In this document: piece by piece, positions 41,440 through 58,757 of the stretch
Layout of the letters: every line of letters begins with the position of its first letter
How positions within the stretch are numbered: position 1 is the first letter of the stretch
Source of the DNA: Candidatus Doudnabacteria bacterium
GTDB lineage: Bacteria; Patescibacteriota; Doudnabacteria; UBA920
Assembly (NCBI GenBank): GCA_963837465.1
Contig: CAWINB010000004.1
Span: forward strand, 724,393 to 788,392
Direction: 5' to 3'
Length of the DNA stretch: 64,000 bases
Program-made: the position numbers and the translations under genes
Notes under the pieces: model-generated
Told to the model about the DNA's origin: nothing
What the model saw: only the letters and a program-made list of their open reading frames with translations
The model's database searches: none

Positions 41440-41560
41440 GAACCTGTTTGAAAAATAATTTGCGGGCGGAATCGCGGCAATTTCCGGCAGATTGGCGCAA
41501 ATAAATTTTGATGTTTAACCTAAGTTAAAAGGAATAATTTTTTGCGGCAGGATGCCGAAT
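41440..41560 (+). mobile_element. MITE-like element E1 (left TIR gaacctgtttgaaaaat; right end degenerate)
   Basis: About 120 bp nearly identical to the reverse complement of 58635-58757. It starts at the stop codon of 40639..41439. Confidence 0.7.
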
Positions 41561-41644
41561 TTAAATTAATGGAGCACTAGCCAAATATTTAAGCGGCAGG
41601 ATATTTATCCTGAAATTGCGGCATAAAATAAAAATCCTCTAAGG

Positions 41645-41673
41645 TTGAGCGTTGCGCGCGCAGGTGGTATAGT
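41645..41673 (+). promoter_or_regulatory. sigma70-like promoter (ttgagc - 17 bp - tatagt) for the ECF sigma operon
   Basis: Seen directly, 8 bp upstream of the ATG at 41681. Confidence 0.4.
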
Positions 41674-41680
41674 ATTAGTT

Positions 41681-42271
41681 ATGCAGGAATTTACAGATGC
41701 CGAACTCGTAGTTAAGTACCTAAAAGGGGATAGTGCGGCACTGGATAGTCTCATCCAGCGCCATTTCAGGCAAGTATTCCTTTTTGCCAAAAGCTACGTT
41801 AAGGAAGACCAGCAGGCCGAGGACATTACCCAGGAGGTTTTTGTCAAGCTTTGGAAAAACATAAAAAAATTTGATCTCAATAAAAAGTTCACAACCTGGC
41901 TGCTGCAAATAACCAAAAATACCTGCATAGACTATTTGCGCAAAACCAAAAAATTGGTGGCGGCGCAAACTCTGGATGAGGACGTTATGCGGGATAATCT
42001 GGAAAAGATTACCGATCCGGCTCCGCTCCCCGAGGAACTGCTGGATTCCCAGGGCTTTGCCGACCAGCTGGATTCGGCCATCGCGACCCTGCCGGAATCT
42101 TATGCCTTGGTAGTCAGGCTCCATTTACAGCAAGATTTGACTTTTCAGGAAATTTCCGAGGTTTTAAGCCAGCCTCTTAACACAATCAAAAGCCGTTACA
42201 GGCGGGCTCTGCTGGGAATTAGAGGTAATTTGGGCGTAAATAAAGCCCCGAGCGCACCTAAAGTGCCTTAA
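41681..42271 (+). CDS. ECF-subfamily RNA polymerase sigma factor
   Basis: Region 2 (ITQEVFVKLWKN...FTTWLLQITKN) and region 4 (LTFQEISEVLSQPLNTIKSR). Confidence 0.85.
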   Translation: MQEFTDAELVVKYLKGDSAALDSLIQRHFRQVFLFAKSYVKEDQQAEDITQEVFVKLWKNIKKFDLNKKFTTWLLQITKNTCIDYLRKTKKLVAAQTLDEDVMRDNLEKITDPAPLPEELLDSQGFADQLDSAIATLPESYALVVRLHLQQDLTFQEISEVLSQPLNTIKSRYRRALLGIRGNLGVNKAPSAPKVP

Positions 42272-42308
42272 ATCACGTATTAATTTTGAGTTAATTATTA
42301 TCTTTTTT

Positions 42309-42770
42309 ATGGAAATTCGGGAAAGCGGTAAAAATCAAACAATTTTGGAAGTAGCCTTAAAAGGTCGGTTGCAAAAAAACGATTTACGGGATTTTTCCGG
42401 CTATTTATTTTATAAAATTTTGAACCGCATCCACTACGAGCAGCAGCTGAAAAGTTTAAAGCCCAAACTCTGGGCCGCGGTTAGTGTGCTCATTGCCAGT
42501 GTGGCTGTTCTGATTGTGGCCGCCGATGTTTCGTTTAGGGCTTTCGCTCAAGCCCCTGTTTTAAGGTTTATAACTTTAAGTTTTACCGATTTCGGCCAAG
42601 TCGCCGCCAATTGGCAGGATTACGCTTTTTCCATTCTGGAAAGTTTGCCTTTGGGCGCCATGGCTTTTTTGCTGTCCGCCTGTCTTGCCACTATTCTACT
42701 TTTTGATTTCAGTACCCACCAGTGGTCCAATTTTCGTAAACTTTTGCATGGTCACCAAGGTCCGCGTTAA
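42309..42770 (+). CDS. putative membrane anti-sigma factor
   Basis: Lies immediately downstream of the ECF sigma. It has a single TM helix. The call is by position only. Confidence 0.4.
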   Translation: MEIRESGKNQTILEVALKGRLQKNDLRDFSGYLFYKILNRIHYEQQLKSLKPKLWAAVSVLIASVAVLIVAADVSFRAFAQAPVLRFITLSFTDFGQVAANWQDYAFSILESLPLGAMAFLLSACLATILLFDFSTHQWSNFRKLLHGHQGPR

Positions 42771-42806
42771 CCTTAAAATAGGCTTTAAGCAACCCAAGCT
42801 GAATAT

Positions 42807-43331
42807 TTGCAAATTATGGAAAATTTTAAAACAGATACGGCCAACTCAAGCGGTTCACCCGTGGTAGACAACGCAGCAACAGCCTCCAAAAGCCAGTTTT
42901 CGGGCCATCAACACTCCAGGCTTTTTAAGTGGATAGTAGGCACGCTGCTTGAGCTTATTATTGTACTGGGAGTTTTTGCCCTTGGCGTTCAGGTGGGATT
43001 TCATAAGGCCGGTTTTACATATTCCTGGATAAATAATTATCCCAATAATTTTGGAGGCTCACGGCCGCCGGTAAAGCTTCCCAGCAGCAGCGAATTTTTA
43101 AACGCCCACGGGTTATTTGGCACTATTTTAAGCACAGGCCAAAATACTTTAATTGTAAAAGACGACGATAATAACGAAAAAACTGTTGTGGTTCCCGCAA
43201 ACGCCGTTCTTCGGGAAAACTTCCAGGACATCCATTCTTCGGACTTAAAGACCGGTCAGCAGATAATAGTCATAGGCAGTCCCGACAATCAGGGCCGCAT
43301 TGACGCTAAGTTTATAAGAGTCCTGAACTAA
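42807..43331 (+). CDS. hypothetical membrane-anchored protein
   Basis: A TM helix is followed by a beta domain similar to 47773... Confidence 0.4.
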   Translation: MQIMENFKTDTANSSGSPVVDNAATASKSQFSGHQHSRLFKWIVGTLLELIIVLGVFALGVQVGFHKAGFTYSWINNYPNNFGGSRPPVKLPSSSEFLNAHGLFGTILSTGQNTLIVKDDDNNEKTVVVPANAVLRENFQDIHSSDLKTGQQIIVIGSPDNQGRIDAKFIRVLN

Positions 43332-43494
43332 GAGCCTGTTTTAAAAATACTTCGGGCCGCGATTTAAGAATTTTGGCCAAAATCCCAAAAAAATTGTTCC
43401 GCTTAACTTAGGAGGTTAAATATTAAAATTTGTTTTTAAATTTTGTCTCAAAACTCTTAAATTCCGCCCGCGGATTATTTTTCAAATAAATTCT
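43332..43494 (-). mobile_element. MITE-like element E2 (complete; TIRs gagcctgttttaaaaata / ttatttttcaaataaattc), opposite orientation to E1
   Basis: Its reverse complement begins gaatttatttgaaaaataatccgcgggcggaat, matching the E1 start. It starts 1 bp after the stop of 42807..43331. Confidence 0.7.
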
Positions 43495-43595
43495 AAATCA
43501 GTTATCCCGGAATTTCCCTATCTCAACAAATATTTTAAAATTATTTTTAAAAAGAGGTTTTAAACAACAAGTCTAAAAGCCCGATCGTAACAATT

Positions 43596-45332
43596 ATGAA
43601 AGATTTTTTTAAATCGCTTTTCACCAATAAAAAAAGACTGGCAATTTTTATAATTTTAATTCTGGCCGCGGGCTACTTTATTTACAGGCATTATTCCGCC
43701 AAAGCCTCGCCGGTATCCTATTTAACCGCCCAGGCTTCCGACCAGACTATTATCAGCTCGGTATCCGGCACCGGTCAGGTTTCGGAAGACCGCGATGTAG
43801 ATATTACCCCGCAAACATCAGGACAACTGACCGCGGTAGATGTTACCCAGGGGCAGCAGGTTAAAGCCGGACAGACTATCGCGGTTGTAGACGAAACCAA
43901 TAATACCATTGCCTTAAACCAGGCCAGAGCGTCTGTTGCCAGCGCCCAGGCCAACTATGACCAGGTTCTGGCCGGCAGCACTTCTCAGGCTATAGAGTTG
44001 GCGCAACTGGCAGTCGCTGCCGATCAGGAAGCCGTTACCACCGCCAGCACCAGCCTTCAAACCACCAAACAACAGGATGCTACCAACGTAGCCAATGCCC
44101 TGACAAATCTTTTAAATTCCTCTCCCTCAGCCATGGCTTCCAATACCAATATTGGCACCGGAACGGTCAATATTACAGGTAACTACACCGGTACCCAGCA
44201 AGGTACATATACCATACAGATTTACAGCACCGGTTCTGGCAAACAGTTTGACTATACCGGTCTTGAAAGCGGTACGGGAGTAATCAGCAGCGTGCCGCAG
44301 CCTTTAGGCACAAAAGGTTTGTATGTTGCCTTTACCGGCCAGCCGATTGATACTGATACCTGGACCGTTTCCATCCCCAATACTTTAGCGTCCAACTACA
44401 CGGCTAATTACAATGCTTACCAAACAGCCTTAACCAGCCAAGCCAACGATATTACGACTGCCCAAAACCAAATTGTATCCGCCCAAAATAAATTGCAGCA
44501 GGACGAAGTTAATTTACAGGTTCAGCAGCAACCGCCTACCAACCAGGCCGTGGAAAGCGCTAAAGCCTCCTTAATTCAGGCTCAGGCCCAGTTGCAGGAT
44601 GCTCAAATTACATATAATAATAATATTTTAAAAGCGCCCTTTGACGGTGAAGTTGCTCAGCTAAATAACCAAGTCGGCGACCAAGTAAGCGCTTCCACCG
44701 ACGTGGCGGTAATGGTTACCAATCAATCGGTAGCTATAATCCCATTAAATGAGGTTGATGTGGCAAATGTCCAGCTCGGGGATAAAGTCAGCATGACTTT
44801 TGACGCCGTTACGAACCTGACAATTACCGGTACCGTAGTGGAAATAGACAATATAGGTACCGTTAGCCAAGGGGTGGTAAGCTATAATGTAAAAATTACT
44901 TTTGATACCGAAGATCCTCGCGTTAAGTCGGGCATGAGTGTTTCCGCTTCCATAATTACCAACATAGCGGCTGATGTTCTCTCGGTCCCCAGTACGGCTA
45001 TTCAAATCCAGGGGACAAACAGCTATGTGGAAGTTTTAACTTCCGGCGATACGACTCCGGCGGTTAGCGGTCAAGGTGTAACTTCCAAAGTAGCCCCCAC
45101 AAACGTAGTGGTGCAAACAGGGGTTACCGATGATACCAATACCCAGATTACCGGAGGTAACCTGAAAGTCGGTGATACGGTGGTAACGCAAACTATTAAT
45201 CCTACGGCTACCAAATCGGCTGCCAGTTCAGCCACCAGCGCTTTGCGCCTTGGGGGCGGAGGCGGAGGCTTTGGCGGCGGCGGAGGCGGGGGAGCCGTCA
45301 GAGTTACCACGGGAGCGGCCGGGGCAAGATAA
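43596..45332 (+). CDS. HlyD/MacA-type periplasmic adaptor (membrane fusion protein) with a long Thr/Gln-rich insert and a Gly-rich C-terminus
   Basis: N-terminal TM anchor, a biotinyl-lipoyl-like motif, and LKAPFDGEVAQLNNQVGDQVS beta-barrel motifs. Confidence 0.7.
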   Translation: MKDFFKSLFTNKKRLAIFIILILAAGYFIYRHYSAKASPVSYLTAQASDQTIISSVSGTGQVSEDRDVDITPQTSGQLTAVDVTQGQQVKAGQTIAVVDETNNTIALNQARASVASAQANYDQVLAGSTSQAIELAQLAVAADQEAVTTASTSLQTTKQQDATNVANALTNLLNSSPSAMASNTNIGTGTVNITGNYTGTQQGTYTIQIYSTGSGKQFDYTGLESGTGVISSVPQPLGTKGLYVAFTGQPIDTDTWTVSIPNTLASNYTANYNAYQTALTSQANDITTAQNQIVSAQNKLQQDEVNLQVQQQPPTNQAVESAKASLIQAQAQLQDAQITYNNNILKAPFDGEVAQLNNQVGDQVSASTDVAVMVTNQSVAIIPLNEVDVANVQLGDKVSMTFDAVTNLTITGTVVEIDNIGTVSQGVVSYNVKITFDTEDPRVKSGMSVSASIITNIAADVLSVPSTAIQIQGTNSYVEVLTSGDTTPAVSGQGVTSKVAPTNVVVQTGVTDDTNTQITGGNLKVGDTVVTQTINPTATKSAASSATSALRLGGGGGGFGGGGGGGAVRVTTGAAGAR

Positions 45333-45418
45333 AGTAAGTAATTGAACAAAATTGACATGATTGAACAAAATTGACAAGAGTGTCAGCAATTAATCTTTTA
45401 AATCATGTCAATTAGTCT

Positions 45419-46141
45419 ATGATTGAAATCCAGAATGTCACCAAAACTTATAAAAGCGGGGATAACGAAACCACCGCGCTCAAGGGCGTCAGTTTTACAG
45501 TGAAGGACGGGGAGTTTGTGGCTATTATGGGTCCTTCCGGCAGCGGCAAGTCCACGCTTATGCATATTATCGGCGCGCTGGATAATCCGACCTCCGGCAA
45601 ATACCTGCTCGACGGCCGCGATGTTTCCACTATGAGCGAACAGGAGCTTGGTAATATCCGCAAAGACCACATAGGTTTTGTTTTTCAGGCTTTTAACCTT
45701 CTTCCGAGGACTACTGTTTTGCGCAATGTGGAGTTGCCTCTTATGTACGCCGAGGTGCCTAAAGCGCAGAGGGAACAACTGGCCAAAAAAGCGCTGCTCG
45801 CGGCCGGAATGAGCGAAGACAGATTTTCCCACTATTCCAACCAGCTTTCCGGCGGCCAGATGCAAAGAGTGGCCATTGCCCGCGCTTTGGTAAATAACCC
45901 TTCCCTAATTTTGGCCGATGAACCAACCGGCAACCTTGATACCAAAACAGGGGAAATAGTTTTGGGAACTTTTCAAAAATTAAATCGCGAAGGCCACACG
46001 GTTGTTTTAATTACCCATGAGCGCGACGTGGCTGAGCACGCGCAAAAAATCATACTTCTCCGCGACGGCCTTATAGTTAAGGAAGAGACCGCGCACCGGC
46101 AAAAAGCCGCCAGTCCGGATCAGGTCAATGATATTATTTAA
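45419..46141 (+). CDS. ABC transporter ATP-binding protein (MacB/LolD family)
   Basis: Walker [10 protein letters not shown], the signature [15 protein letters not shown], and Walker [12 protein letters not shown]. Confidence 0.9.
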
Positions 46142-46208
46142 TAATTTCAAATTCCAAATATCAAATTTTAAATGACGGACAAATGTTAAATTTTTGAAAT
46201 TTAAGCCT

Positions 46209-46362
46209 TAGAAGCTGTTTAAAAAGTCATTTGGGCCGCAATTCCGGAATGTTTGGCGCCTTGCCGAAAAAAATTTTTCCGCTTAGCTTTAGGCTAAACG
46301 TCAAAATTTGTTTCCGTCAATCCGCGCAAAATTCTGTAATTTCGCCTACAAAGCACTTTTTA
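46209..46362 (-). mobile_element. MITE-like element E3 (diverged; TIRs agaagctgtttaaaaagtc / gactttttaaacatcttct)
   Basis: The internal sequence aligns with E4 (ccgcttagctttaggctaaacgtcaaaatttgtttccg...). It lies between the macB ATPase and the permease. Confidence 0.6.
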
Positions 46363-46417
46363 AACATCTTCTTAGGATTTTATTTGAAATTTGTAATTGG
46401 AAATTTGAAATTCCCCC

Positions 46418-47648
46418 ATGCTTACAAAAGATTTGATGGAAGAAACATATTGGGCACTTTCCGCCAATAAAGTGCGGTCATTTTTGACAATTTTAGGCAT
46501 TGTTATTGGAGTTGCCTCGGTGATAGCCATGATAGCCGTAGGGCAGGGCTCCCAAAGCAGCATCCAAAACAGCATCCAGTCCGCCGGAGCCAATTTGTTA
46601 ACAATTAGTCCCGGAGCCCAGGTGGGAGTTGGGGTTACGGTAAGCTCCGGTCGTGGCAGCGCCCAGACCTTGCTGCAAACCGACGCCACCGCCATTACCC
46701 AAAATGTGCCGCTGGTTTCCGCCGTATCTCCGGAATTTAGCGGGCGTTACCAGGTCACGGCAAAAGGCACCAACACCAACACCAGCGTAATTGGTGTTTT
46801 ACCGGCCTACCTACAGGTTCACAACGTGCAGATTCAGGAAGGCAGCTTTATTACCGCCGAGCAAAATACCCAGTTGGCCAGAGTTGTGGTTTTGGGCCCG
46901 ACGGCGCGCGACGATTTATTCGGCGTGGGAGCGGAAGCCGTAGGCCAGACAATAATAATTAAAAGCGAAGAGTTTAAAGTTATCGGTATAACAGTTTCCA
47001 AGGGCGGCACCGGTTTTAACAATCCGGATGACGCGATTTACAGCGCCTTTATCAACGGTGCAGCATTTTTTAGCCGGGGATACCACAGGTTATCTCACGA
47101 GTATCGCCGTCCAGGTTCAAAATCAGAGTGATATGGACGCGGCGCAAAACGAGATAACCACCCTCCTGCTGCAACGGCACAATATTTCAAACCCGACCAA
47201 CGCGGACTTTAGTATTGTCAATCAGGCCGATATTGTGGCATCCGCTTCCACCGTTACCAATACTTTTACCATACTTTTGGCTTCGGTGGCGGGAATTTCC
47301 CTGTTGGTGGGCGGTATTGGCATCATGAATATGATGCTGACTACTGTAACCGAACGTACCCGGGAAATCGGCTTGCGCAAAGCTATCGGCGCGCAAAAAA
47401 CCGATATTACCAAGCAATTTTTGAGCGAAGCCGTTATGCTGACTTTTTTGGGCGGAATGATAGGTATTGTACTGGGGTGGCTGATTACCTTGGCTGTAAC
47501 TTATTTTGCCAATATCGCGACCCAAGTTTCGTATTCATCCATCCTTTTGGCTTTTGGGGTTTCCGCGGCCATTGGTATAATTTTTGGCTATTACCCTTCC
47601 AGAAGGGCGGCTGCCTTAAATCCGATTGAGGCGCTGAGGTATGAATAA
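46418..47648 (+). pseudogene. ABC transporter permease (MacB/FtsX family) with a +1 frameshift in a T6 run at 47066-47071
   Basis: Frame a ends ...DDAIYSAFINGAAF. Removing one T gives ...AFLAGDTTGYLTSIAVQV, continuing into the FtsX domain (frame of 47028..47648). Confidence 0.7.
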
Positions 47649-47654
47649 TAAATC

Positions 47655-47740
47655 TAATCAACGAATTGAAACGAATATACGAATGCCTACGAATTCGCAG
47701 ATTCGCAACGATTCGTATATTCGTTTCAATTCATAAATTC
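47655..47740. repeat. intergenic repeat family D, copy 2, forming an internal 23-bp inverted repeat
   Basis: cgaattgaaacgaatatacgaat ... attcgtatattcgtttcaattc. The right arm is identical to 8188-8211. Confidence 0.6.
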
Positions 47741-47772
47741 GATACATTAATAATTAAAAGTAATAACAAAAT

Positions 47773-48222
47773 ATGACAAGCAAGCAAATTGTTACATTGG
47801 TGGTTGTTGCCGTTGTTTTTGGCGGCGGAGGTTTTTTTGGAGGGGTAAAGTATCAGGAGTCTAAAACCCCGACGGTGGCCGCGAGGACCGGAGCCGGAGC
47901 CGGAGCCGCGGGCGGCTTTGCCGGCCGAAGGACAGGGGGCGGCGGCAGCGCCGCGAGTTTTGTCAGCGGTCAGGTATTAAGTGTAACCAGCAACACCATA
48001 ACGGTCAAAAATATGGCCGGAGGTTCAGAGATTGTGATTTTAGCGCCCTCTACCCAGTACAGAAAAGCCGTGGACGGAACGGTATCAGATGTTACCGTGG
48101 GCAGCCAGGTTACGGTAACCGGCAATACCGATTCCACCGGCAGTCTAACAGCGCAAAGCGTGCAAATAAGAACAGGTACTTCCACGCCGCCTTCCATGAT
48201 GCCGATGATTCCGGCTAAATAA
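47773..48222 (+). CDS. hypothetical membrane-anchored Gly-rich protein
   Basis: TM helix followed by a GGGG run and a beta domain. Confidence 0.4.
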   Translation: MTSKQIVTLVVVAVVFGGGGFFGGVKYQESKTPTVAARTGAGAGAAGGFAGRRTGGGGSAASFVSGQVLSVTSNTITVKNMAGGSEIVILAPSTQYRKAVDGTVSDVTVGSQVTVTGNTDSTGSLTAQSVQIRTGTSTPPSMMPMIPAK

Positions 48223-48337
48223 AAATCTTGCCGTAAGTTTTGCCTTAAAGGCTGTCTGAAAAGATTTATTTCCGCCCAATTTAAGAATTTCGCGACGAAA
48301 ACGATTTCCACACAGCCTCTTAACCAATCAGCCAAAA

Positions 48338-48366: not shown

Positions 48367-48400
48367 AAAGTCGGGCTGAAATTGTGGTAGAATAAAGCAT

Positions 48401-48937: not shown

Positions 48938-49024
48938 GGGCAGGTACTCAAGCGGTCAACGAGGACTGACTGTAAATCAGTTGGCTTTACGCCTTCATAG
49001 GTTCGAATCCTATCCTGCCCACCA
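48938..49024 (+). tRNA. tRNA-Tyr (anticodon GTA), class II with a long variable arm
   Basis: GGGCAGG/CCTGCCC acceptor stem, anticodon loop CTGTAAA, T-loop TTCGAAT, and an encoded CCA. Confidence 0.8.
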
Positions 49025-50475
49025 TTGAAAAATTTCCAGCTTTTTTGGCGATTCCGCTATTAGCTGATAAGGTTGTTTGAGCTGAAAACATTGTGTGTTA
49101 CCATCTTGGAGCTTAAGGTTCCAAAGTAACTTTTTCAGCAATTCAAACTTTTTAGCGTTATCGCCGGAAAGATAATCAAAACTAGCAGAATTGGCCTGTA
49201 AGAAGGCCTTTTTTGTTTGTTCCAAAGTTGCCAACTGTTGTTCGGGAGTAATCTTGCCTAAATCGGAAATCTGCTTTGTGATAGTTTCCACATCCTGCTT
49301 CAGAGATAAAATTTTAGGCTTGAGCGTTTCTTTCATATCGGGGTCAGAGGAAATCATCTCAATTAGGTTTGCGAGTTTGCCTTGAGCCGTTTTAAGCTGT
49401 TTGGCCAGTTCTGATTTTTTGTCATCAGTTGAACCGCCCTGTTTTAGGATTTTATGCTTGGCCGCTTCGTAAGCCATTTCCATTTCATTGATGTCAAACT
49501 GAACATTGCTAAAAACTTTAGCCACTAACTCATCGTTGCCTTATCCCTTAAATATTTTCTGTGCTGTTCACAATTTCCTTTGCCATTGGTGCAGTACCAA
49601 TAAATGTGGCCTTTTTTAGTTGTTGCTGTTAAAGCACAACCACAAGAAAAGCAATTCATAAAACCTCTTAATGGAAAAAAGTGTTTTTGGGCTTTGGGGT
49701 GATGTTTGCCGTTTAAGACATCTTGGACATTATCAAACAGGGTTTTGCTGATTAATGGCGGATGATTGCCGGGGTAAAGCTGGCCGTTACTCCGCATTGT
49801 GCCATAGTAAAATGGCTGGGTTAAGATTTTATGCAATAAGGCTTTGCTGACTTTAAAGCCCTCTCTAGTGTTTAAGCCCTGCTTTTCTAAAATTTCATTA
49901 ACCTGCTTAAGAGAATAGCCGCCGGTAGCGTAAAGTTCAAAGGCTTGTTTAACTAATGAACCTCTAATGGGGTCAATTTCTTTTAGCTTGGTAATTTTGT
50001 TATCAATGTAACCCAAGGGGGAGCGGTTCGGCCATTCACCCCTTTCTAATTTGGTGCGGTTGCCACGCTTCACATTTTTGGACAGGTCGATGCTGTATTG
50101 TGCGGCCATACTAAACTCCACGCCGGAAACCAAAACATTGTCTTCGGGATAGTAAGTTTTTTCGGGAGTGATTATTTTACCGATTATTCCAGTTTGCAAT
50201 AGCCATTTAATTTTACCCTCGTCAATGGGGTTTCTGGCGAGCCGGTCAAGTTTCCAAACCAAAACCACAGAGCCAGGGTTACGCTCAATTAAACTTACAA
50301 GCTTTGCAAATTCAGGACGGCCGGGTTTTCTTGCCGACATACTTTCGGTAAAACTTTTATCAACAGCAATATTTTGTTTTTCCGCAAAAGCCGCCAACTC
50401 CTTTTCTTGGCTCTCAATGGAAAGCACCTGATGATAGGAATCTTCGGACGAATGAACAATGGGGACATGACCCAT
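49010..50475 (-). pseudogene. second large serine recombinase, split by a frameshift at about 49525
   Basis: 49525..50475 encodes the catalytic + recombinase + zinc-ribbon region. It lacks the conserved N-terminal Y/R residues, and its start codon lies inside an IS hairpin. 49010..49525 encodes the coiled-coil C-terminal region in another frame. The 3' end overlaps tRNA-Tyr, the same layout as at tRNA-Thr. Confidence 0.7.
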
Positions 50476-51203
50476 TGTTTTGGCTTAATTATTGTTTAAA
50501 AGGCCTTCCCGGCTGTCTAAGGGTATAGCCTAAATCATATCTGTCGACTTGTTTGCCAACCCAAGCCTCACTGCCAAAAGGCCTGCTTTTTTCAACCGAA
50601 GTCCTAATGTTATCAAGCTGTGTTTTTGCTAATGGGTGATTAACCAAGCTTAAATAATTCTTTGGTATTTCTATGGGCCAAGGCATTAAAATCTTCTTAG
50701 CCAATTCGGAATTCTTTAATCTTAAACACAAACTGCTCCAAGGCCAATCCTCGGCGTTTTTTACCATTTTGGCTCGAAGGGCATTGGCTTCTACATATTT
50801 TGCCAGTTGTATAAAATATTCATCTTTTTCAACCAAAAAAGACTTGAATCGGCCCTGAAATAAATGCCCCGTCCCCACCGTACCGTGTTTTGTGTGCCAT
50901 CGCTGGGTTGTTTTTTGGGTAAACTTACCAAAAAATCCACCCATATCCCCATTAGCTTTAGGCCTGACTACAAAATGCCAATGATTAGACATTATGCAAA
51001 AAGCAAAGATGTCTATGGGAATTAACTCCAATGTTTCCACTAAGGATTTTACCACGCCTTGGAAATCTTTGTCGGATTTAAATATATCCCAACGGGCGTT
51101 GGATCTATTTATGACATGAAAAATCTGATCGGCTATGTCCAGCCGCGGTTGTCTAGCCATTGCTAAAGTATAACATAAAAAAATTAATGGGTCATGTCCC
51201 CAT
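50458..51203 (-). mobile_element. IS200/IS605-family (RAYT-like) element bounded by 19-nt hairpin ends aatggggacatgacccatt / aatgggtcatgtccccatt
   Basis: The two ends are exact reverse complements, and each is an imperfect hairpin. These are subterminal-hairpin ends, not TIRs. Confidence 0.65.
50489..51160 (-). CDS. tnpA: IS200-like / REP-associated tyrosine transposase (HUH Y1)
   Basis: IMSNHWHFVV (HuH) and GHLFQGRFKS...YVEANALRA (catalytic Tyr region). 223 aa. Confidence 0.75.
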   Translation of the reverse strand: MARQPRLDIADQIFHVINRSNARWDIFKSDKDFQGVVKSLVETLELIPIDIFAFCIMSNHWHFVVRPKANGDMGGFFGKFTQKTTQRWHTKHGTVGTGHLFQGRFKSFLVEKDEYFIQLAKYVEANALRAKMVKNAEDWPWSSLCLRLKNSELAKKILMPWPIEIPKNYLSLVNHPLAKTQLDNIRTSVEKSRPFGSEAWVGKQVDRYDLGYTLRQPGRPFKQ

Positions 51204-51207
51204 TCAT

Positions 51208-52494
51208 TTAAGTCCCTTCCTGCCAGCTGGCCAAATATTTTTGCTGGGCTGGTGTTAGTACGTCTATTTTAACTCCAAGTGCCGCTAATTTTAGCCGGGA
51301 AACTTTTTCGTCTATTTCTTTTGGTACGTTGTAGACTTTATTTTCCAGGGTTTTGTAATTTTTGGCCAGCCACCGGCAGGTTAGGGCTTGGTCGGCAAAG
51401 GACATATCCATAACCGCCGCCGGGTGGCCTTCGGCCGCGGCCAGGTTCATCAGCCGTCCTTCGGCAATCAAAAATATTTTTCGCCCATTCTTCATACTAA
51501 ATTCCTGCAAGTTGTCCCTGACGAGCTGACAGCTGACAGCTGACAGCTTTAAGCTTGCTATATCAATCTCCACATTAAAATGCCCGCTGTTGCCTAAAAT
51601 CGCGCCATCTTTCATTAGTTTAAAATGCGCGGCGGTTAAAACGTCTTTGTCTCCCGTGGCCGTTAAAAAAATGTCTCCGATTTTTGCCGCTTGCGCCATT
51701 GGCATAACTTCAAAGCCGTCCATGGCCGCCTGTAAAGCCGGCAGGGGATCAACTTCAGTCACTATCACCCTGGCCCCTAAACCCTTACCCCTTAGCGCCA
51801 TTCCCTTGCCGCAATAACCGTAACCGGCGACCACTAAAATTTTTCCGGCTAACAGGATATTGGTGGCGCGCAATAAACCGTCCATGGTGGATTGCCCGGT
51901 ACCGTAATAGTTGTCGAACATATGCTTGGTCGGCGTATCGTTAACCGCCACTATCGGGTACTTAAGCGCGCCGTCTTTGGCCATAGCCCTGAGCCTGATT
52001 ACTCCGGTCGTGGTTTCTTCCTGTCCCGCCCGGACAGTTTTAAGAAGTTCGGAGCGATCCGAATGGATAAGTGAAATTAAATCCGCGCCATCGTCAATGG
52101 TAATGTCGGGCTTAAAATCCAGGACATCGTTTAAAGCTTTGTAATAGTCTTTATGATTGATTCCGCGCCAGGCAAAAACGTGGATTTTATGTTCTGCCAG
52201 CGCGGCGGCCACGTCATCCTGGGTAGAAAGGGGATTACTGCCGCACAGCGCGACATTCGCGCCTCCGGCCACCAGCGCCTTCATTAACACCGCGGTTTCT
52301 TTGGTCACGTGCAGGCAACAGGCAATATTTAAATTTTTTCCGCCGGAGGCGGATCCGCCTTTGGCGGAAAACGGTTGTTGCTGTTTAAAATCGGCTGTTA
52401 TGGACCGCAGTACTGGCATTTCCCGCTCGGCTAAGTCTATGTTGGCGCGCCCCTTGGCGGCCAGCTTTTGATTCTTGACCTGAAAACTTTTCAT
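51208..52494 (-). CDS. ahcY: adenosylhomocysteinase
   Basis: Collinear with SAH hydrolase, including the NAD-binding GYGxxGKG region. It contains a roughly 10-aa Gly/Ser insert encoded by palindrome A' and a (gctgaca)3 tract. Confidence 0.9.
   Translation of the reverse strand: MKSFQVKNQKLAAKGRANIDLAEREMPVLRSITADFKQQQPFSAKGGSASGGKNLNIACCLHVTKETAVLMKALVAGGANVALCGSNPLSTQDDVAAALAEHKIHVFAWRGINHKDYYKALNDVLDFKPDITIDDGADLISLIHSDRSELLKTVRAGQEETTTGVIRLRAMAKDGALKYPIVAVNDTPTKHMFDNYYGTGQSTMDGLLRATNILLAGKILVVAGYGYCGKGMALRGKGLGARVIVTEVDPLPALQAAMDGFEVMPMAQAAKIGDIFLTATGDKDVLTAAHFKLMKDGAILGNSGHFNVEIDIASLKLSAVSCQLVRDNLQEFSMKNGRKIFLIAEGRLMNLAAAEGHPAAVMDMSFADQALTCRWLAKNYKTLENKVYNVPKEIDEKVSRLKLAALGVKIDVLTPAQQKYLASWQEGT
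51524..51547. repeat. heptanucleotide tandem repeat (gctgaca)x3 inside ahcY
   Basis: Seen directly. It encodes SAVSCQL and is in-frame because 21 bp is a multiple of 3. Confidence 0.6.
52346..52381. repeat. family A GC-rich palindrome, second copy, in-frame inside ahcY
   Basis: ttttccgccggaggcggatccgcctttggcggaaaa compared with 2225-2258. It encodes the SAKGGSASGG-type insert absent from canonical AhcY. Confidence 0.75.
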
Positions 52495-52539
52495 CGGAAA
52501 TTTTTGTTAATTAGTTAGACCTGTTTTAAAAACAGGCTC

Positions 52540-53025
52540 TTAAGCATTAAACCCGGAAATTTTAACCTTATAATTATATTCGTGGATAATAGTAATTACA
52601 AACAGGATGTCAAGCGCGGTCAGAATCTCCAAAAACAAGGAATGATTCATGGCGATACGGTAAATTTGATAAACAATAAAAGACAAAAGAACTCCGATGG
52701 CTATTAAGTAAGCCTGGAGTTTTTGCTTCCACAGGCCCCAGACCAAACAAAGGTTTATAAGGCCGTGAGCCAAAATGTAAAAACCGGCGAATATCCTGGT
52801 CTCCACGGTCAGGTGCTGGATGTAGCGGTAAGAGTAGTCAAAAAAAAAGTCGGTCGGATCTTTGGAAAACTCACCCCTGGAGACCCGGATTAAAAAAGAG
52901 CGCAAAATAGCAGACTGGACAAACAGCAGCAAAAGGCCGCTTGTGGTCTCAATAAGTCCGGTAAGCGATTTAACGCATACTCCAATGAAAAAAAAATCGT
53001 GCCAGTATTTTTCCGATAACTTCAT
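52540..53025 (-). CDS. hypothetical polytopic membrane protein
   Basis: Four predicted TM helices. The start is taken at MKLSEKYW. Confidence 0.4.
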   Translation of the reverse strand: MKLSEKYWHDFFFIGVCVKSLTGLIETTSGLLLLFVQSAILRSFLIRVSRGEFSKDPTDFFFDYSYRYIQHLTVETRIFAGFYILAHGLINLCLVWGLWKQKLQAYLIAIGVLLSFIVYQIYRIAMNHSLFLEILTALDILFVITIIHEYNYKVKISGFNA

Positions 53026-53213
53026 GTGTTTAGTATAACAAAAACGGCAGTCAATAACAAGCGGCAAGGCTTTATTTTTGGCGGAAAAAAATAAATTTTG
53101 GCGGATTTAAGCAGGCGGTAGTTTTTTGTGAATTCTGAAACAATTCAAGAACTTTTTGCGTACTATGATTGCCGGACAAATTCAAATACATCCAAAGAAG
53201 AAAGGCCATAAAT

Positions 53214-54158
53214 ATGAAAACAATTTTAAAACTGACTTTTTTGACAGCTATAGTGACGTTGCTATCCGGTGTTTTAATCCAACCTTCGCTGGTCGCGGCG
53301 GCTGCTTTACCGACTGCGCCTAATTCGGGCGCTGGCGCCAGCGCTTCCTACAACTGGGCCGGCTACACGGCCACCGGCGCTGACTTCACAGCGGTTAACG
53401 GAAGTTGGATGGTGCCTGAGGCTACCGCGGCCAGCAACAGTAATTTGTCGGCGGATGCCACCTGGATAGGCATCGGCGGCATCAGCGGCAATGATTTAAT
53501 CCAGGTCGGTACCCAAGCCATTTTTAGCAACGGCCAGGCTACCTACCAAACTTGGTATGAACTTTTACCGAATGCTTCACAAAATATTGCCATGACGGTG
53601 AATCCCGGCGACTTTATTACCGCTTCGTTAAACGAGCAGGCCGCCAATCAATGGAGCGTGTCCTTGCGCGACAATACCACAGGACAAAATTTCCAAACCG
53701 TGGTCAGCTACAACTCTTCGCGGTCCTCGGCGGAATGGGTGGAAGAAATGCCTACCCAAACCGGCAGCGGTTTTATCCCCCTGGATAATTTCGGCGCGGC
53801 GCAATTCAGCAATTCTTCGGCCGTGGAAAACGGCAACCTTGAAAACCTTTCAGCCTTAAATGCCCAGCCTTTGACAATGCTGACCACAACCAGCCAGGCT
53901 TTGGCGACGGTTTCTGCCATAGGCAGCGATGGCGCGAGCTTTACGGTAACCAGGACCGGCGTGGCGGCGGCTTCCGGTGTTGGCGGATTTGGCGGAGGGC
54001 GCGGTGGTTATCGCAGAGTCGGCCGCGGCGCCCAGGGTTTTGGTTCCATGCCGGGCCCGCAGTCCCAGCCCCCATCGATAAGAAGTTTTTCCCGTTTTAG
54101 GTTCCATTCTCTCCAAAGACAAAACTTCGGCTATTCATATTTTTTCCTGATCAAATAG
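53214..54158 (+). CDS. secreted peptidase G1 (eqolisin/scytalidoglutamic peptidase) family protein with a Gly/Arg-rich tail
   Basis: SYNWAGY, ATWIGIGG, LIQVGTQ and QTWYELLP match the G1 SxNWAG / WVGIDG / LQTG / WYEWYP pattern. A signal peptide is present. Confidence 0.6.
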   Translation: MKTILKLTFLTAIVTLLSGVLIQPSLVAAAALPTAPNSGAGASASYNWAGYTATGADFTAVNGSWMVPEATAASNSNLSADATWIGIGGISGNDLIQVGTQAIFSNGQATYQTWYELLPNASQNIAMTVNPGDFITASLNEQAANQWSVSLRDNTTGQNFQTVVSYNSSRSSAEWVEEMPTQTGSGFIPLDNFGAAQFSNSSAVENGNLENLSALNAQPLTMLTTTSQALATVSAIGSDGASFTVTRTGVAAASGVGGFGGGRGGYRRVGRGAQGFGSMPGPQSQPPSIRSFSRFRFHSLQRQNFGYSYFFLIK

Positions 54159-54170
54159 AATTTTTACGCG

Positions 54171-54204
54171 CCCCCGCTTTTATTTAAGGCGGGGGTGTTT
54201 TGTC
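54171..54204 (+). terminator. rho-independent terminator (cgcccccgc...gcgggggtg + tttt)
   Basis: Seen directly after the peptidase gene. Confidence 0.65.
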
Positions 54205-54418
54205 GTAGTTAGACGATCCCGGGACCTGACGGAGTCCGGGACAGGTTTGCGGGCCTATAAATCGGCTAACCATACTACCCGCTAAATCAATTTTTATCAG
54301 ATTAAAATTCGCGATACGGGCTTTGTATATTTGATTATTTTGTGGCATAATATTTACATACAGCGTGAAATGATGGGTATCGTAAAAAGCTTAATCCGGA
54401 CAAAAATAAACAGTAATT

Positions 54419-55642
54419 ATGGGCCAGAAACAAAAACTGATCTTCCCCGAAAATTTCTTGTGGGGCGCGGCGATTTCAACTCACCAAACAGAAGGCGGTA
54501 ATGCCAATAACGATTGGTGGGCTTTTGAGCATAGCGCCGGGCGTGAGAAAGACCTGCGCCGGGAAAACAAAAACCCGGAAGATTATTACAGCGGCGCGGC
54601 CTGCGATTTTTATAATCGGTACGAAGAGGATTTCGACCTCGCCAGTCAACTGCGCCACAATACCGTCCGTTTCGGGGTTGAGTGGTCCAGGGTAGAGCCC
54701 CGGGAAGGCTTTTTTGACGAGGCCGCGCTTGATCATTATGAAAAAATGCTGCAGGCGGCCCAAGTACGGGGGCTGACCGTGTTTTTGACTTTGCACCATT
54801 ATGCCAACCCCTTGTGGTTCGCGGACAGGGGGGCTTTCACAAAAAAAGAAAATGTCGATTATTTTGTCCGTTACGCCAAAACCATTGCCGCGCGGCTTGG
54901 TCAATACGTGGATTTTTGGCTTACAATCAACGAGCCGAAAGTCTACACATTTTTTTCCTACGCGGTCGGCACCTATCCTCCGCGCAAGAGGAACCTGTGG
55001 CTTGCCGCCGCCGTGGCGCATAATCTTATCCGGGCTCACAACAGGTCGGCGCGGGAACTGAAAAACCTTACAGCTAAGCCGGTCAGCATGGCTTTCCAGC
55101 TTTCGGATATCCAGCCCAAAAGCATCCTGAGCCGGCCGCTAATAGGCATGCTTAATTATTTTGTTAATGATTATTTTCTCAGCCGCACAATAGACCATTG
55201 CGATTTTATCGGCGTCAATTATTATTTTCACCATCACGTGGGTTGGTTTGGAGAGCGGAAGATGAGCAAAAGCGAACATGAAAAAAACGACCTTGATTGG
55301 GGCATACACCCCGAGGGCATTGAAAGGGTCCTGATGCGCCTGCATAAAAAATATAACAAACCAATGTATATTACGGAAAACGGCATTGCTGACGCCAAAG
55401 ACAATAAACGCGAGAAGTTTATTGTTAATCATTTGGCGCACATCCATAAAGCCATCCAGCAGGGCGCCGATGTCCAAGCCTATTTGTATTGGTCGCTTAC
55501 AGACAACTTTGAGTGGCTGTACGGGTTTGGTCCGCGTTTTGGGCTTATTGAAATTGATCGTGAGGATGGGCTTAAGCGCGCGGCGCGTCCCAGCGCCCTG
55601 AAGTTCGCGGAAATCTGCAAAAATAATTATTTGGAATATTAA
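54419..55642 (+). CDS. glycoside hydrolase family 1 beta-glucosidase
   Basis: FLWGAAISTHQTEGG, TINEP and YITENG catalytic motifs. Confidence 0.9.
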   Translation: MGQKQKLIFPENFLWGAAISTHQTEGGNANNDWWAFEHSAGREKDLRRENKNPEDYYSGAACDFYNRYEEDFDLASQLRHNTVRFGVEWSRVEPREGFFDEAALDHYEKMLQAAQVRGLTVFLTLHHYANPLWFADRGAFTKKENVDYFVRYAKTIAARLGQYVDFWLTINEPKVYTFFSYAVGTYPPRKRNLWLAAAVAHNLIRAHNRSARELKNLTAKPVSMAFQLSDIQPKSILSRPLIGMLNYFVNDYFLSRTIDHCDFIGVNYYFHHHVGWFGERKMSKSEHEKNDLDWGIHPEGIERVLMRLHKKYNKPMYITENGIADAKDNKREKFIVNHLAHIHKAIQQGADVQAYLYWSLTDNFEWLYGFGPRFGLIEIDREDGLKRAARPSALKFAEICKNNYLEY

Positions 55643-56526
55643 TGCTTATCCTGCTGATCATTCTACAATATTTTGTCCTTTCCACGCTGGACATTTCGGA
55701 TAAATTTTTAATCAGCAAAAGGAAGGTTGAGCCGCTGAGCTATACTTTTTATACCGTGGTATTCGGTATTCTGCTGGCTGTGATTTGGCCCTGGGTTTAC
55801 GCGTCGCTGCCGTTATCCTCCGTAATTTTGGATATGGGAGCCGGTGTTTGGTTTACGCTGGCCGCGCTTGTATTTTACACTACGCTGGCCGAGGGGGAAG
55901 TCAGCCGCGTGGTGCCCTTTGTTTATGGGATAGTGCCGGTTTTTGATATTGCGTTCCAGGCCATTTTTAGGATCAGCGATCTCCATGTCCAGCAGGCGGC
56001 CGCGCTGTGCCTGCTTATTCCCGGGGCCTTGTTGTTGACTTACAAGCGGGGCAAATTTTTGGGCAGGCATGTGGCCATGAAAGTTCTGGCCGCGGGGATG
56101 ATTAGCAGTTACAATCTTTTATGGCACTTTAGCTCCCAAACCGGACCCGTGCTTAACAGCCTTATCTGGAACCGCGTCGGCGCCACTGTAATAGCGCTAA
56201 GCTTTTTGCTGGTTCCGGGGGTTCAAAAGCGGATTTTTACCGTTAAGCATGTCAAACAGAAAAAAAATACATCCGTGGTTTTTCTTATCAAGCAGTTTGT
56301 CGGCGGCCTGAACTTTACCTTTATGAGTTTCCTTTATTCCGCCGGATCGGTCCCGATTGTAGACGGGCTGCAGGGTTTCAGGTATTTGTTCTTACTGGCA
56401 GGCAGCTTGTTTTTAAGCAAAAAACACAAACATATTGTTGAAGAAGACGTTAATCATCGGGAAGTTTGGCAGAAAACTTTTGCCATTGGGTTGATTTTTT
56501 TGGGAACCTTGATTTTATTTTTGTAG
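55642..56526 (+). CDS. hypothetical polytopic membrane protein
   Basis: About 8 TM helices. No family assigned. Confidence 0.4.
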   Translation: MLILLIILQYFVLSTLDISDKFLISKRKVEPLSYTFYTVVFGILLAVIWPWVYASLPLSSVILDMGAGVWFTLAALVFYTTLAEGEVSRVVPFVYGIVPVFDIAFQAIFRISDLHVQQAAALCLLIPGALLLTYKRGKFLGRHVAMKVLAAGMISSYNLLWHFSSQTGPVLNSLIWNRVGATVIALSFLLVPGVQKRIFTVKHVKQKKNTSVVFLIKQFVGGLNFTFMSFLYSAGSVPIVDGLQGFRYLFLLAGSLFLSKKHKHIVEEDVNHREVWQKTFAIGLIFLGTLILFL

Positions 56527-56546
56527 CGGGAAATTAACCAAACCAG

Positions 56547-57548
56547 ATGAAGTGGCTTAAAAGAATTATTATTTGCGTTGGGATTGTCGCCCTGGTTTTA
56601 TGGTTGCTGGCCCTTAATGCCGGCCCTAAAGCTAAAACCATCCAGTACGGCGTAACTTTCAGCGTGCCTTACGCCCAAAGTTTGGGGCTGAACTGGCAAG
56701 CAGCATACGCAGCGACGCTGACGGATCTTAACGTAAAACTTTTGCGCATACCGGTCTATTGGGATGAAGTGGAAACCAGCCCCAACCACTACGATTTTTC
56801 CGACATTGATTTCATGCTTAATCTCGCCGCGCAAAACCACGCCCAGGTTATTTTGGCGGTGGGCAAGCGCCTGCCGCGCTGGCCGGAATGCCACGAGCCG
56901 GACTGGGCCGGAAAGCTTTCCGTCGGCGATGAACAGGCCGCCCAGCTTTCTTATATGGAAACCACGGTCCAGCGTTACTACAATAACTCCGTCGTTACAA
57001 CCTGGCAGGTGGAAAACGAGCCTTATGTTTCCAGTTTCGGGCCGTGCCCGCCTCTTGACCAAAGTTTTTTTGACGCGGAAATCGCCGCGGTCAGGAGCAT
57101 CGATCCGTCCCGCCCGGTTTTGGTTACGGACAGCGGCGAACTGAACTGGTGGATACACGCCAGCTCCCGCGGAGATGAATTCGGCACGACTTTTTACCGC
57201 TATGTTTACTCCGACGTTTTGCGCCGTTATTGGACAAATTTTTATTTTCTGCCGTTTGTCTATAGAATAAAAGCAGGTATAATAAGGTTACTGCATCCGG
57301 GCAAGTCTGTGATGATAGCGGAACTTGAGGCCGAACCCTGGACGACCAACGGCATTACCAGCACGCCTATAAACGAGCAGTTCCAGACAATGAGCCTGAG
57401 TCACTTTAAGACCATAACTTCGCTGGCCGCGCAAACGGGTTTTTCCCCGCAGTATTTATGGGGCGTGGAGTGGTGGTACTGGATGAAAACGACCCAGAAC
57501 CACCCGGAGTTTTGGGAAACGGCTAAGCAGCTGATAAATAAAAAGTAA
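56547..57548 (+). CDS. glycoside hydrolase, clan GH-A TIM-barrel (GH5-like)
   Basis: N-terminal TM/signal, WQVENEP (acid/base) and IAELEAEPW (nucleophile) motifs. Confidence 0.5.
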   Translation: MKWLKRIIICVGIVALVLWLLALNAGPKAKTIQYGVTFSVPYAQSLGLNWQAAYAATLTDLNVKLLRIPVYWDEVETSPNHYDFSDIDFMLNLAAQNHAQVILAVGKRLPRWPECHEPDWAGKLSVGDEQAAQLSYMETTVQRYYNNSVVTTWQVENEPYVSSFGPCPPLDQSFFDAEIAAVRSIDPSRPVLVTDSGELNWWIHASSRGDEFGTTFYRYVYSDVLRRYWTNFYFLPFVYRIKAGIIRLLHPGKSVMIAELEAEPWTTNGITSTPINEQFQTMSLSHFKTITSLAAQTGFSPQYLWGVEWWYWMKTTQNHPEFWETAKQLINKK

Positions 57549-57615
57549 TATCCATAAATATCCCAATATTCTTAAAATTTAAGATAGCGGGATATTAATG
57601 ACGACAATTTAAATT

Positions 57616-58386
57616 ATGGCAAATATTATTGGTTTGGATATAGGCGGGACAAAAATCAGCGGTGTTGTCTGGGACGGCAAAAAAGTTATTGAGGAATTGA
57701 CGATTGTTACGCCGAAAAATTTGTTTGAATTTGAAAAAAATGTTTTAAAATTGGCCGATTTTCTGTCGGCCAGCAGGAACATCCGCGGAATAGGCGTCGG
57801 CGTTGCCGGAAAGGTGGATCCCAAAAGCGGAGTCGTGGCATATTCGCCCAACATTAAATTCGTTCAGGATTTGCGATTAACAAAGCTTTTTAAGCTTAAG
57901 GGCTTTAACAAAGTCAAAATCGACAATGACTCAAAATGTTTTACCAGGGCGGAGGCGTTGCTGGGGCAGGGACGCGGCCGGGCTACTCTTGTCTGCGTTA
58001 CTTTGGGCACGGGCATTGGCGGCGGCTTGGCGGCGGCAGGGCAGGTCTATGGCGGAGCTAATTTTGCCGCCGGCGAATTCGGCCATATGATTTACGGCGG
58101 CAATCAGACTTTTGAACGGCTCTACCAGCAGGCGCGCGACAGCCATGACGATGCCGCCCTCGCGGAAATAATCGGCTCCTTGCTGACAAATATTTATCGC
58201 GTTGTCGATCCCGAAACTATAGTACTTGGAGGGGGCGTGGTTTTCGATCGCGAACGGAATTTTTTAAAACGGGCCGCGGCTGTTTGCGCCAAAAACCTGG
58301 CTTCTTATAAAATCAAGGCCGATAATATTAAAATATCTAAATTAAAACACGCCGGCGCGGTGGGCGCGGCGTTATTGGTAAAATAA
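57616..58386 (+). CDS. ROK-family sugar kinase (glucokinase-like)
   Basis: GLDIGGTKISGVV and the GxGxGGG / ExGH pattern. Confidence 0.75.
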   Translation: MANIIGLDIGGTKISGVVWDGKKVIEELTIVTPKNLFEFEKNVLKLADFLSASRNIRGIGVGVAGKVDPKSGVVAYSPNIKFVQDLRLTKLFKLKGFNKVKIDNDSKCFTRAEALLGQGRGRATLVCVTLGTGIGGGLAAAGQVYGGANFAAGEFGHMIYGGNQTFERLYQQARDSHDDAALAEIIGSLLTNIYRVVDPETIVLGGGVVFDRERNFLKRAAAVCAKNLASYKIKADNIKISKLKHAGAVGAALLVK

Positions 58387-58460
58387 TTGACTCAAAATTT
58401 GGCATAATAAAGCGCGGCCGCGCTTTATTATGCCAAGCATTTAACAAAAAAATAAAAGCC

Positions 58461-58583
58461 ATGAAAAAAATACTTTTTTCTTTAATTCTAATATCTCTTT
58501 TGGCCGCCGGCTGCGCCAGGGTGACTTTACGGCAAAATGTTCCCACGGTTCCCAAAGAGTCTTACGAACAGCTGCCGCAGTAA
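58461..58583 (+). CDS. small lipoprotein (40 aa)
   Basis: MKKILFSLILISLLAAGC is a signal peptide plus lipobox. It falls below the ORF-track size cut-off. Confidence 0.4.
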   Translation: MKKILFSLILISLLAAGCARVTLRQNVPTVPKESYEQLPQ

Positions 58584-58597
58584 TAACGGGGTATTAA

Positions 58598-58757
58598 GAA
58601 CCTGTTTTAAAAATCTTTATGGCTGAAGCAGCGGAATTTCGGCATCCTGCCGCAAAAAATTATTCCTTTTAACTTAGGTTAAACATCAAAATTTATTTGC
58701 GCCAATCTGCCGGAAATTGCCGCGATTCCGCCCGCAAATTATTTTTAAAATAGGTTC
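58598..58757 (-). mobile_element. MITE-like element E4 (complete; 17-bp TIRs gaacctgttttaaaaat / atttttaaaataggttc)
   Basis: The TIRs are perfect apart from 1 mismatch. The internal sequence is nearly identical to E1 in reverse complement. It abuts the scpB stop codon. Confidence 0.75.

Follow-up and report, generated by a model that had tools for sequence, protein, structure and literature searches.

A family of ~160-bp miniature inverted-repeat transposable elements with a conserved core in Doudnabacteria-like bacteria

Why do near-palindromic sequences of about 160 bp recur between the genes of a Candidatus Doudnabacteria genome, and why do several of them sit directly against stop codons? 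The question is raised by a stretch of 64,000 nucleotides on contig CAWINB010000004.1 (hereafter, the window), in which an original prediction had recognized four copies (E1 to E4) of an element resembling miniature inverted-repeat transposable elements (MITEs), bounded by 17-bp terminal inverted repeats (TIRs) and always placed right after a stop codon. Here, we present an analysis of these copies and of their relatives in other genomes. We conclude that E1 to E4 are ~160-bp non-autonomous transposable elements, i.e., MITEs, of Doudnabacteria-like bacteria of the candidate phyla radiation (CPR). CPR bacteria (Patescibacteria) are ultra-small, with tiny, densely packed genomes that are thought to be poor in repetitive DNA, and the literature that we searched contains no description of MITEs in CPR/Patescibacteria or of the core sequence described below. 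E1 to E4 belong to the first characterized MITE family in CPR bacteria, which is a known kind of mobile DNA with an unusually conserved center.

Copies, duplications and empty sites

All four copies were located where they had been predicted, and all are of the type that we refer to as type A. E2 (43332..43493, 162 bp), E3 (46211..46371, 161 bp) and E4 (58598..58757, 160 bp) are full copies on the plus strand, E2 being decayed. E1 (41440..41562, minus strand) is truncated; a single TIR, an arm, the core and a portion of the other arm are left, while the last ~37 nt and the second TIR are absent. The predicted length of about 160 bp consequently holds for E2, E3 and E4 but not for E1. The TIRs of E4 are 17 nt long, as predicted, with one mismatch between them. 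E1 and E4 had also been predicted to share ~120 nearly identical bp; this stretch comprises 124 nt (41439-41562 in E1 and 58635-58758 in E4), but the two are 98% complementary, so that the truncated E1 is inverted relative to E4. E2 and E3 are colinear with E4 at ~65-70% identity and have kept both ends, in agreement with their description as diverged copies with both TIRs. Within the window, the TIR 17-mer occurs 11 times at ≤3 mismatches compared with 0.97 occurrences expected, and all of these lie within 38-64 kb; the central 22-mer is confined to E1 to E4, and a profile search with nhmmer gave significant scores for these four copies only.

Using the core pattern, we scanned one genome per species and, in addition, metagenomes. 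The genome scan yielded nine true loci, five in one Candidatus Doudnabacteria metagenome-assembled genome (MAG), three in MAGs labelled Saccharibacteria and one in an unclassified MAG; a tenth match, in a Pacearchaeota genome (L011), has no arms and was discarded as a chance match. The metagenome scan added 12 loci, and a search with a profile built from 18 copies added four copies outside the pattern selection (L019b, L019c, L006a and L003b). There are four copies in the window, at least six in 8-kb pieces of one Doudnabacteria MAG, and three in L019. The copies elsewhere are bounded by the same TIRs, and all copies measure 157-162 bp between their ends. We distinguish type A (the window copies, L004, L005, L008, L013, L014 and L019), type B (the Doudnabacteria MAG, L006 and L015, with L003b as a more divergent B-like copy, B2) and type C (the Ga0213870 loci). 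BLAST of E4 gave no match in plasmid or phage collections, and the core-pattern scan gave none in the viral contigs of IMG/VR. The named homologues of the window proteins are from Doudnabacteria or Patescibacteria.

The copies are flanked by target-site duplications. In type B (ends AGAC...GTCT), six of nine copies have perfect but variable 3-bp direct repeats (AAT, ATT or AGT), for which we estimate a chance rate of ~0.03 per copy from the base composition of the flanks. In type A, with the ends set as GA...TC, which gives the same 160-bp length, E2 is flanked by TAA (43329-43331) and TAA (43494-43496), E3 by TTA (46208-46210) and TTA (46372-46374), L019c by TTA on both sides, and E4 by TAA (58595-58597) and TAG (58758-60).

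Relatives of the window genome have the same sites without the element. The contigs L024-L029, with MacB ATPases 86-93% identical and synteny with 41.6-54 kb of the window, have no copy within 20 kb. The E2 site is empty in L024, L027 and L028, with a spacer of 35 bp in L024, and at the E3 site, the gap between the ATPase and permease genes of L024 is 5 bp and holds no element. Similarly, at the E4 site, the gap between the ScpB and ROK genes is 6 bp and element-free in the relative L031, compared with 370 bp in the window (the C-terminal tails of the ScpB relatives are not conserved, and this comparison concerns only the presence or absence of the element). L019, which is also syntenic, has its three copies at other positions, and the L019c site is empty in its close relative L027. 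Finally, a Logan contig from another assembly with an identical ScpB has its end within the element, which is the usual behavior of repeats in short-read assemblies. Together, the shared TIRs of the foreign copies, the 3-bp duplications and the empty E2, E3 and E4 sites in syntenic relatives support the predicted MITE nature of the family and show recent transposition in Doudnabacteria. Because the copies break short-read assemblies and add strong hairpins to operons, they are relevant to the quality of MAGs and, possibly, to gene expression.

These data also bear on the idea that the copies do not move and are inherited vertically as a conserved terminator or regulatory intergenic hairpin of the host. 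The intergenic positions, often at the 3' ends of genes, and the strong hairpin would fit this idea; however, the orthologous sites are empty in relatives, target-site duplications are present, and copies also lie next to gene starts and inside an operon. Moreover, the terminator function considered in the original prediction is not borne out: the element ends in ...AAAATAGGTTC, with no T-run after the stem; a terminator scan returned 12 terminator-like sites compared with 12.0 expected, none of them at element ends; and relatives have ordinary intrinsic terminators at comparable places. A promoter scan likewise gave no enrichment linked to the element. We consider a vertically inherited, immobile hairpin extremely unlikely.

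Stop codons, target triplets and the transposase

The claim that the elements always follow stop codons does not hold. In the window, it applies to three of the four copies (E1, E2 and one end of E4), and over all loci, a stop codon lies ≤5 nt from an end in ~8 of 24 copies, while ~10 of the 24 are within ~65 bp of a start codon. Many copies are in 3' untranslated regions (UTRs) or inside operons, some are next to gene starts, and their orientation relative to co-directional flanking genes is balanced (6:6). In the window, both E1 and E2 begin right after a TAA stop. In the case of E1, the TAA at 41437-41439 is at once the stop of the open reading frame (ORF) 40639-41439 and the flanking TWA triplet. 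In the case of E2, the left TAA of the duplication (43329-43331) is the stop of ORF 42807-43331, which shows that the element entered this very stop codon and that the codon was thereby duplicated. The last base of E4, C at 58757, is the G of the TAG stop of the ScpB gene on the minus strand, and the left end of E4 is 14 bp past a 40-aa ORF. E3 starts 67 bp past the nearest real stop, that of the MacB ATPase gene (gene end 46141). It is placed in the spacer that separates this gene from the permease gene, where it occupies the apex of an older palindrome (46143-46208 / 46376-46412).

The same pattern is seen at a minimal element (52518..52539), in which two TIR stubs stand back to back (GACCTGTTTTAAAAACAGGCTC). 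This 22-bp sequence has TTA on either side (52515-52517 and 52540-52542), and the right-hand triplet doubles as the TAA stop codon of a DUF2127 gene on the minus strand (52540-53067). The TIR pair is real, and of the two interpretations offered for it, excision footprint or minimal element, a minimal, internally deleted element fits because the TTA duplication has been kept. It has no counterpart in the same spacer of the relative L028.

The suggested target preference for stop-codon regions can thus be retained in a sharper form, in which the TWA triplet is the target and TAA stops are one such target. Insertion into TAA, which is itself a TWA triplet, leaves TAA ahead of the element and the gene end unchanged; alternatively, as at the ScpB gene, TA is left and the first G of the element completes TAG, again with the gene end unchanged. 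If, in a genome whose spacers are 5-35 bp long, a TWA/ANT preference is combined with purifying selection, stop-rebuilding insertions would be among the few survivors. The family would then follow a simple rule for colonizing so compact a genome, in which intergenic space is nearly absent: enter a stop codon and restore it.

PIF/Harbinger elements are reported to duplicate TWA, and ANT is the reported duplication of both the Pangu group and the IS5 elements of bacteria; all are members of one DDE superfamily (PMC4482050). The duplications described here have this composition, i.e., TAA/TTA (TWA) in type A and AAT/ATT/AGT (ANT) in type B. In type C, all four of four copies have TAT/TAT flanks, a triplet that fits neither TWA nor ANT and is indistinguishable from the element's own ends. 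We also considered a 2-bp TA duplication of the IS630-like/Correia type and rejected it: the 3-bp model holds in six of nine type-B copies, which TA does not predict, and type C fails TA. The TA..TA flanks of type B are explained by ANT together with the terminal A and T of the TIRs.

A variable 3-bp duplication implies a staggered cut and, therefore, points to a DDE-type transposase, and because types A and B match the TWA and ANT patterns, we infer that this transposase is of the IS5/PIF-Harbinger (PHIS) type; it is the duplications alone that suggest this family. In our assessment, the best explanation, and a likely one, is that E1 to E4 and their relatives are non-autonomous MITEs that are moved in trans by such an enzyme. 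According to this model, a DDE transposase of the PHIS superfamily, encoded elsewhere, would bind both ends of the element, excise it and reinsert it at an AT-rich triplet via a 3-bp staggered cut; thereby, the triplet would be duplicated, as TWA for type A and as ANT for type B.

The hairpin and its conserved core

Each full copy is a whole-length imperfect palindrome that folds into one rod-like hairpin. For E4, the predicted fold is a single rod of -57.3 kcal/mol (z = -7.7); the corresponding energies are -52.1 kcal/mol for E3 and -36.1 kcal/mol for the decayed E2. The element is composed of TIRs of ~18 nt (consensus RRACYTGTT.TWWAAWW), two complementary arms and a central core of ~40 nt (AAAATTTTTCCGCTTAACTTAGGTTAAACATCAAAATTT). 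It has no coding capacity, the longest stop-free run being ~30 codons in most copies, and matches no Rfam 15 family, whether the whole window is searched at the gathering threshold or the element regions at E ≤ 10. Pairing in the TIR helix, formed by alignment columns 7-24 and 157-174, reaches 93% across 18 copies, and the complementarity of the arms is maintained along the whole element and across subfamilies. Over 48 consensus pairs, 94.3% are paired, compared with 77.5% in shuffles and 33-57% with the partners slid; in 25 pairs both partners have changed, as is also seen in the apical stem (TTAAC/GTTAA to TTAGC/GCTAA), and the covariation score is 0.448 versus 0.166.

The two strands of the element are not equivalent. 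When each copy was folded both ways, 22 of 22 copies had the more stable RNA fold on the strand reading AAATTTTGATGTTTAACCTAAGTTAAGCGGAAAAATTTT, whose mean advantage over the complement is 12.7 kcal/mol; because of shared ancestry, these 22 copies amount to a few independent lineages. The core alone folds at -9.2 kcal/mol on the favored strand and at -3.3 kcal/mol on the complement, and the arms alone favor the same strand in 19 of 21 copies. The favored strand has purine-rich arms in every copy and forms 100 G.U pairs, compared with 44 on the other strand. This asymmetry emerges only with per-copy folding of both strands; a count over the consensus pairs alone gave 21 G.U versus 18 C.A, i.e., no bias. 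Read from the sequence, the "internal loop" of the core on the favored strand is a stack of U.G, G-C, U.G, A.G and G.A.

Several observations weigh against the transposition model proposed above. Firstly, none of the 30 window ORFs scanned in Pfam encodes a DDE transposase (the scan returned two large serine recombinases next to tRNA genes), and none of the fetched loci has an extra TIR pair of the kind expected around an autonomous copy. The one insertion sequence found, an IS3-family element in L028, was considered as the partner and rejected, since the TIR of the MITE and the end of this element (TGACAGGTACCCC...) are unrelated. Secondly, only ~4 of 11 type-A copies have perfect duplications; the remainder are imperfect, with most flanks still TWA, and the end positions of types A and B differ by 1 nt and were chosen to fit. 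Thirdly, cut-and-paste transposition of double-stranded DNA predicts neither the covariation along the whole hairpin nor the strand asymmetry in 22 of 22 copies. Fourthly, between subfamilies, a 44-column core is 90-93% identical, while the TIRs are 41-75% and the arms 39-61% identical, a contrast that is partly built in and drawn from a biased sample because the core was the bait for most of the foreign copies. A conserved core with diverged TIRs is the reverse of the ordinary MITE pattern, and a plain MITE does not explain why the core and the 160-bp length are conserved despite diverged ends and target triplets. The four copies that were found without the bait also keep the core, and only the 4-nt apical loop differs (variants TTAG, TTCG, TCCG, TATG and TGAA).

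Separately from the search for a partner, we note that the IS3-family element of L028, a close relative of the window genome, occupies positions 3-1180 and comprises rve and HTH_Tnp_1 ORFs.

The whole-length hairpin with compensatory changes, its conserved apex and its strand polarity, together with the lack of a DDE partner in the window and the fetched loci, are features that one would expect of REPIN-like or IS200/IS605-like elements, which would be moved as single-stranded DNA by an HUH (Y1, RAYT-type) transposase that recognizes the hairpin. Y1 transposases, however, produce no target-site duplication, and elements of this type have subterminal hairpins in place of TIRs, whereas the copies described here are flanked by variable 3-bp direct repeats and have true terminal inverted repeats at their ends; based on these two features, we rejected a REPIN or IS200/IS605-type element. 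Also, no Y1 or RAYT gene is present among the 30 scanned ORFs. Thus, we regard movement by an HUH enzyme as very unlikely.

That the core stays 90-97% identical between subfamilies with arms at 39-61% identity raises a further possibility, namely that the family is mainly a functional structured RNA or protein-binding hairpin, dispersed in the genome, for which mobility is only the means of spreading. One strand would be transcribed into a ~160-nt rod, and the conserved apex of this rod, made up of a 5-bp stem and an internal loop rich in purines, would be bound by a host protein or act in mRNA processing or stability. The covariation of the apical stem, with the 4-nt loop free to vary, agrees with this possibility, as do the consistently favored strand with its energy advantage, excess of G.U pairs and purine-rich arms, and the many copies in 3' UTRs or operons. 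Against it, the orientation to co-directional genes is 6:6, the same sites are element-free in close relatives, there is no Rfam family and no promoter-like or terminator-like signal tied to the element, and the copies that favor one strand represent few independent lineages. In addition, older copies decay in both core and arms: the core of E2 has an insertion and substitutions, and its fold is -36 kcal/mol compared with -57 kcal/mol for E4. This decay after insertion argues against host-level selection on each copy and, together with the balanced orientation and the relatives without elements, against a host function of each copy. For these reasons, we consider a primarily functional RNA or hairpin unlikely, and we favor that the constraint acts on the element when it moves over a host function of individual copies.

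Returning to the MITE moved in trans by a PHIS-type transposase, we suggest that the core may be a cis-acting site required for mobilization. It might, for instance, bind a DNA-bending protein that unites the ends of so short an element. Our best guess, although a tentative one that we do not rate as probable, is that the core serves an architectural or transposase protein as the cis site through which both ends of a 160-bp DNA can meet. The strand asymmetry leaves room for a single-strand role, as RNA or as single-stranded DNA, and for the small RNAs considered in the original prediction. More speculatively, and with considerable doubt, the 40-nt apex could be a functional module carried by the MITE, i.e., a strand-specific hairpin that is recognized in single-stranded form (RNA or single-stranded DNA) by a host or element protein; the purine-rich internal loop would then be tandem G.A/A.G flanked by G.U pairs. 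If so, the family would amount to a mobile hairpin with a regulatory or architectural role, as opposed to plain junk DNA, and the shared core, the 160-bp length and the strand polarity across three subfamilies would be explained despite the diverged ends and targets. A cis-acting site or an RNA function is what the conserved core and the strand polarity hint at, and either would be of more interest than the element itself.

Known systems, derivatives and neighborhood

The family works like a Tourist/IS5-type MITE, while its habit resembles that of Correia and ERIC elements. Like Tourist-like MITEs and the PHIS superfamily, the elements are small, non-coding, TIR-bounded and AT-rich, with 3-bp TWA/ANT duplications; unlike them, they reside in a CPR bacterial host, have a center that is more conserved than the TIRs and a length fixed at ~160 bp, and are placed in the group by their duplications alone, with no transposase found in the window or the fetched loci. 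Correia repeat-enclosed elements of Neisseria are TIR-bounded, whole-length hairpins of ~100-155 bp with a central site for integration host factor (IHF); they duplicate TA (2 bp), often lie at gene ends and in operons, and are not known to have an autonomous partner. The family described here shares the TIR-bounded, whole-length hairpin and the positions at gene ends and in operons, together with a putative functional center, and no autonomous partner for it was found in the window or the fetched loci; however, its sequence is unrelated and its duplication is 3 bp rather than TA. Compared by reading, with no statistical test, the core matches the IHF consensus WATCAANNNNTTR only partially.

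ERIC/IRU sequences of enterobacteria are whole-length imperfect palindromes of ~127 bp that occur in transcribed intergenic regions in both orientations. The whole-length imperfect palindrome and the greater conservation of structure than of sequence are common to both families, but no clear signature of TIRs plus duplication and no demonstrated insertion polymorphism of this sort are known for ERIC, and sequence and hosts are unrelated. REPINs/BIMEs, finally, have a Y1 transposase (RAYT) as partner and make no target-site duplication. They resemble the present family as hairpin-forming intergenic repeats with compensatory changes and polarity, and differ from it in the duplications found here and in that no Y1 gene is among the 30 window ORFs scanned.

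In addition to the copies above, several sequences in the window may be derivatives or remnants. The original prediction listed possible solo TIRs and a degenerate fragment; individually, these are not significant (nhmmer E = 0.4-2). The fragment, a possible short derivative of 70 nt (48249..48318; E = 0.41) whose membership is uncertain, has TIR-like ends AGGCTGT...ACAGCCT and lies downstream of a DUF5666 gene; in the relative L019, a full copy is near, but not at, the matching position. Two TIR-like 17-mers stand alone and are either remnants or chance matches. One (38175..38191, plus strand, two mismatches) directly precedes an ATG at 38192, and the other (63832..63848, minus strand, three mismatches) overlaps the stop codon that ends ORF 63202-63840. 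Two different genomes have a solo type-A TIR (..CTGTTTTAAAAAT) immediately before the ATG of an unrelated gene, at 38175-38194 in the window and at ~3995-4014 (minus strand) in L002. Just past E2, the stretch 43538..43575 has possible right-end remnants, one type-A-like (AAATTATTTTTAAAAAGAGGTTT) and one type-B-like (AAACAACAAGTCTAA); they are weak and not significant alone.

As for the gene neighborhood, two DUF5666 genes each precede an element or element-like palindrome, i.e., 40639-41439 precedes E1 and 47773-48222 precedes 48249-48318; in L019, a full copy also follows a DUF5666 orthologue, at a different position. Just downstream of E3, the MacB permease gene (46418-47648) has a frameshift near 47040 that gives two overlapping ORFs, while the orthologue in L024 is a single protein of 409 aa with 89% and 84% identity to the two halves; the split gene is either a pseudogene or an assembly error. 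An unrelated palindrome with 54-nt arms (47641-47754) lies between the permease and DUF5666 genes, and in L027 and L028, hairpins of AAGGATT heptamer repeats (near 10730-10820) occupy the same ATPase-permease spacer that holds E3 in the window. Between ROK and E4, the 40-aa ORF (58461-58583) has a lipoprotein-like signal (MKKILFSLILISLLAAGC...), and a perfect hairpin (58401-58435) follows ROK; both are absent from L031, in which the ROK-ScpB gap is the 6 bp mentioned above.

Two regions of the window adjoin tRNA genes. The first, 48938-51204, has tRNA-Tyr, followed by the second of the large serine recombinases (49525-50475, minus strand) and by an ORF (50489-51160) bracketed by 41-nt inverted repeats (50458-50498 / 51164-51204); the syntenic contigs L024 and L028 have a P-type ATPase at this place. 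The other, 15770-35000, is a probable integrated island with a GC content down to 36%, and the half of the window that holds it has no MITE copy. It begins with tRNA-Thr (15770-15845) and a large serine recombinase (15834-17330, minus strand) and encodes a Fic protein (20963-22108), a HATPase protein (24217-25107) and a type I restriction-modification system (hsdM, 26523-28064; hsdS, 29721-30980; hsdR, 31736-34873). Between hsdM and hsdS are a DUF3800 gene (28072-28713) and the Rfam DUF3800-IX RNA (28711-28774, minus strand).

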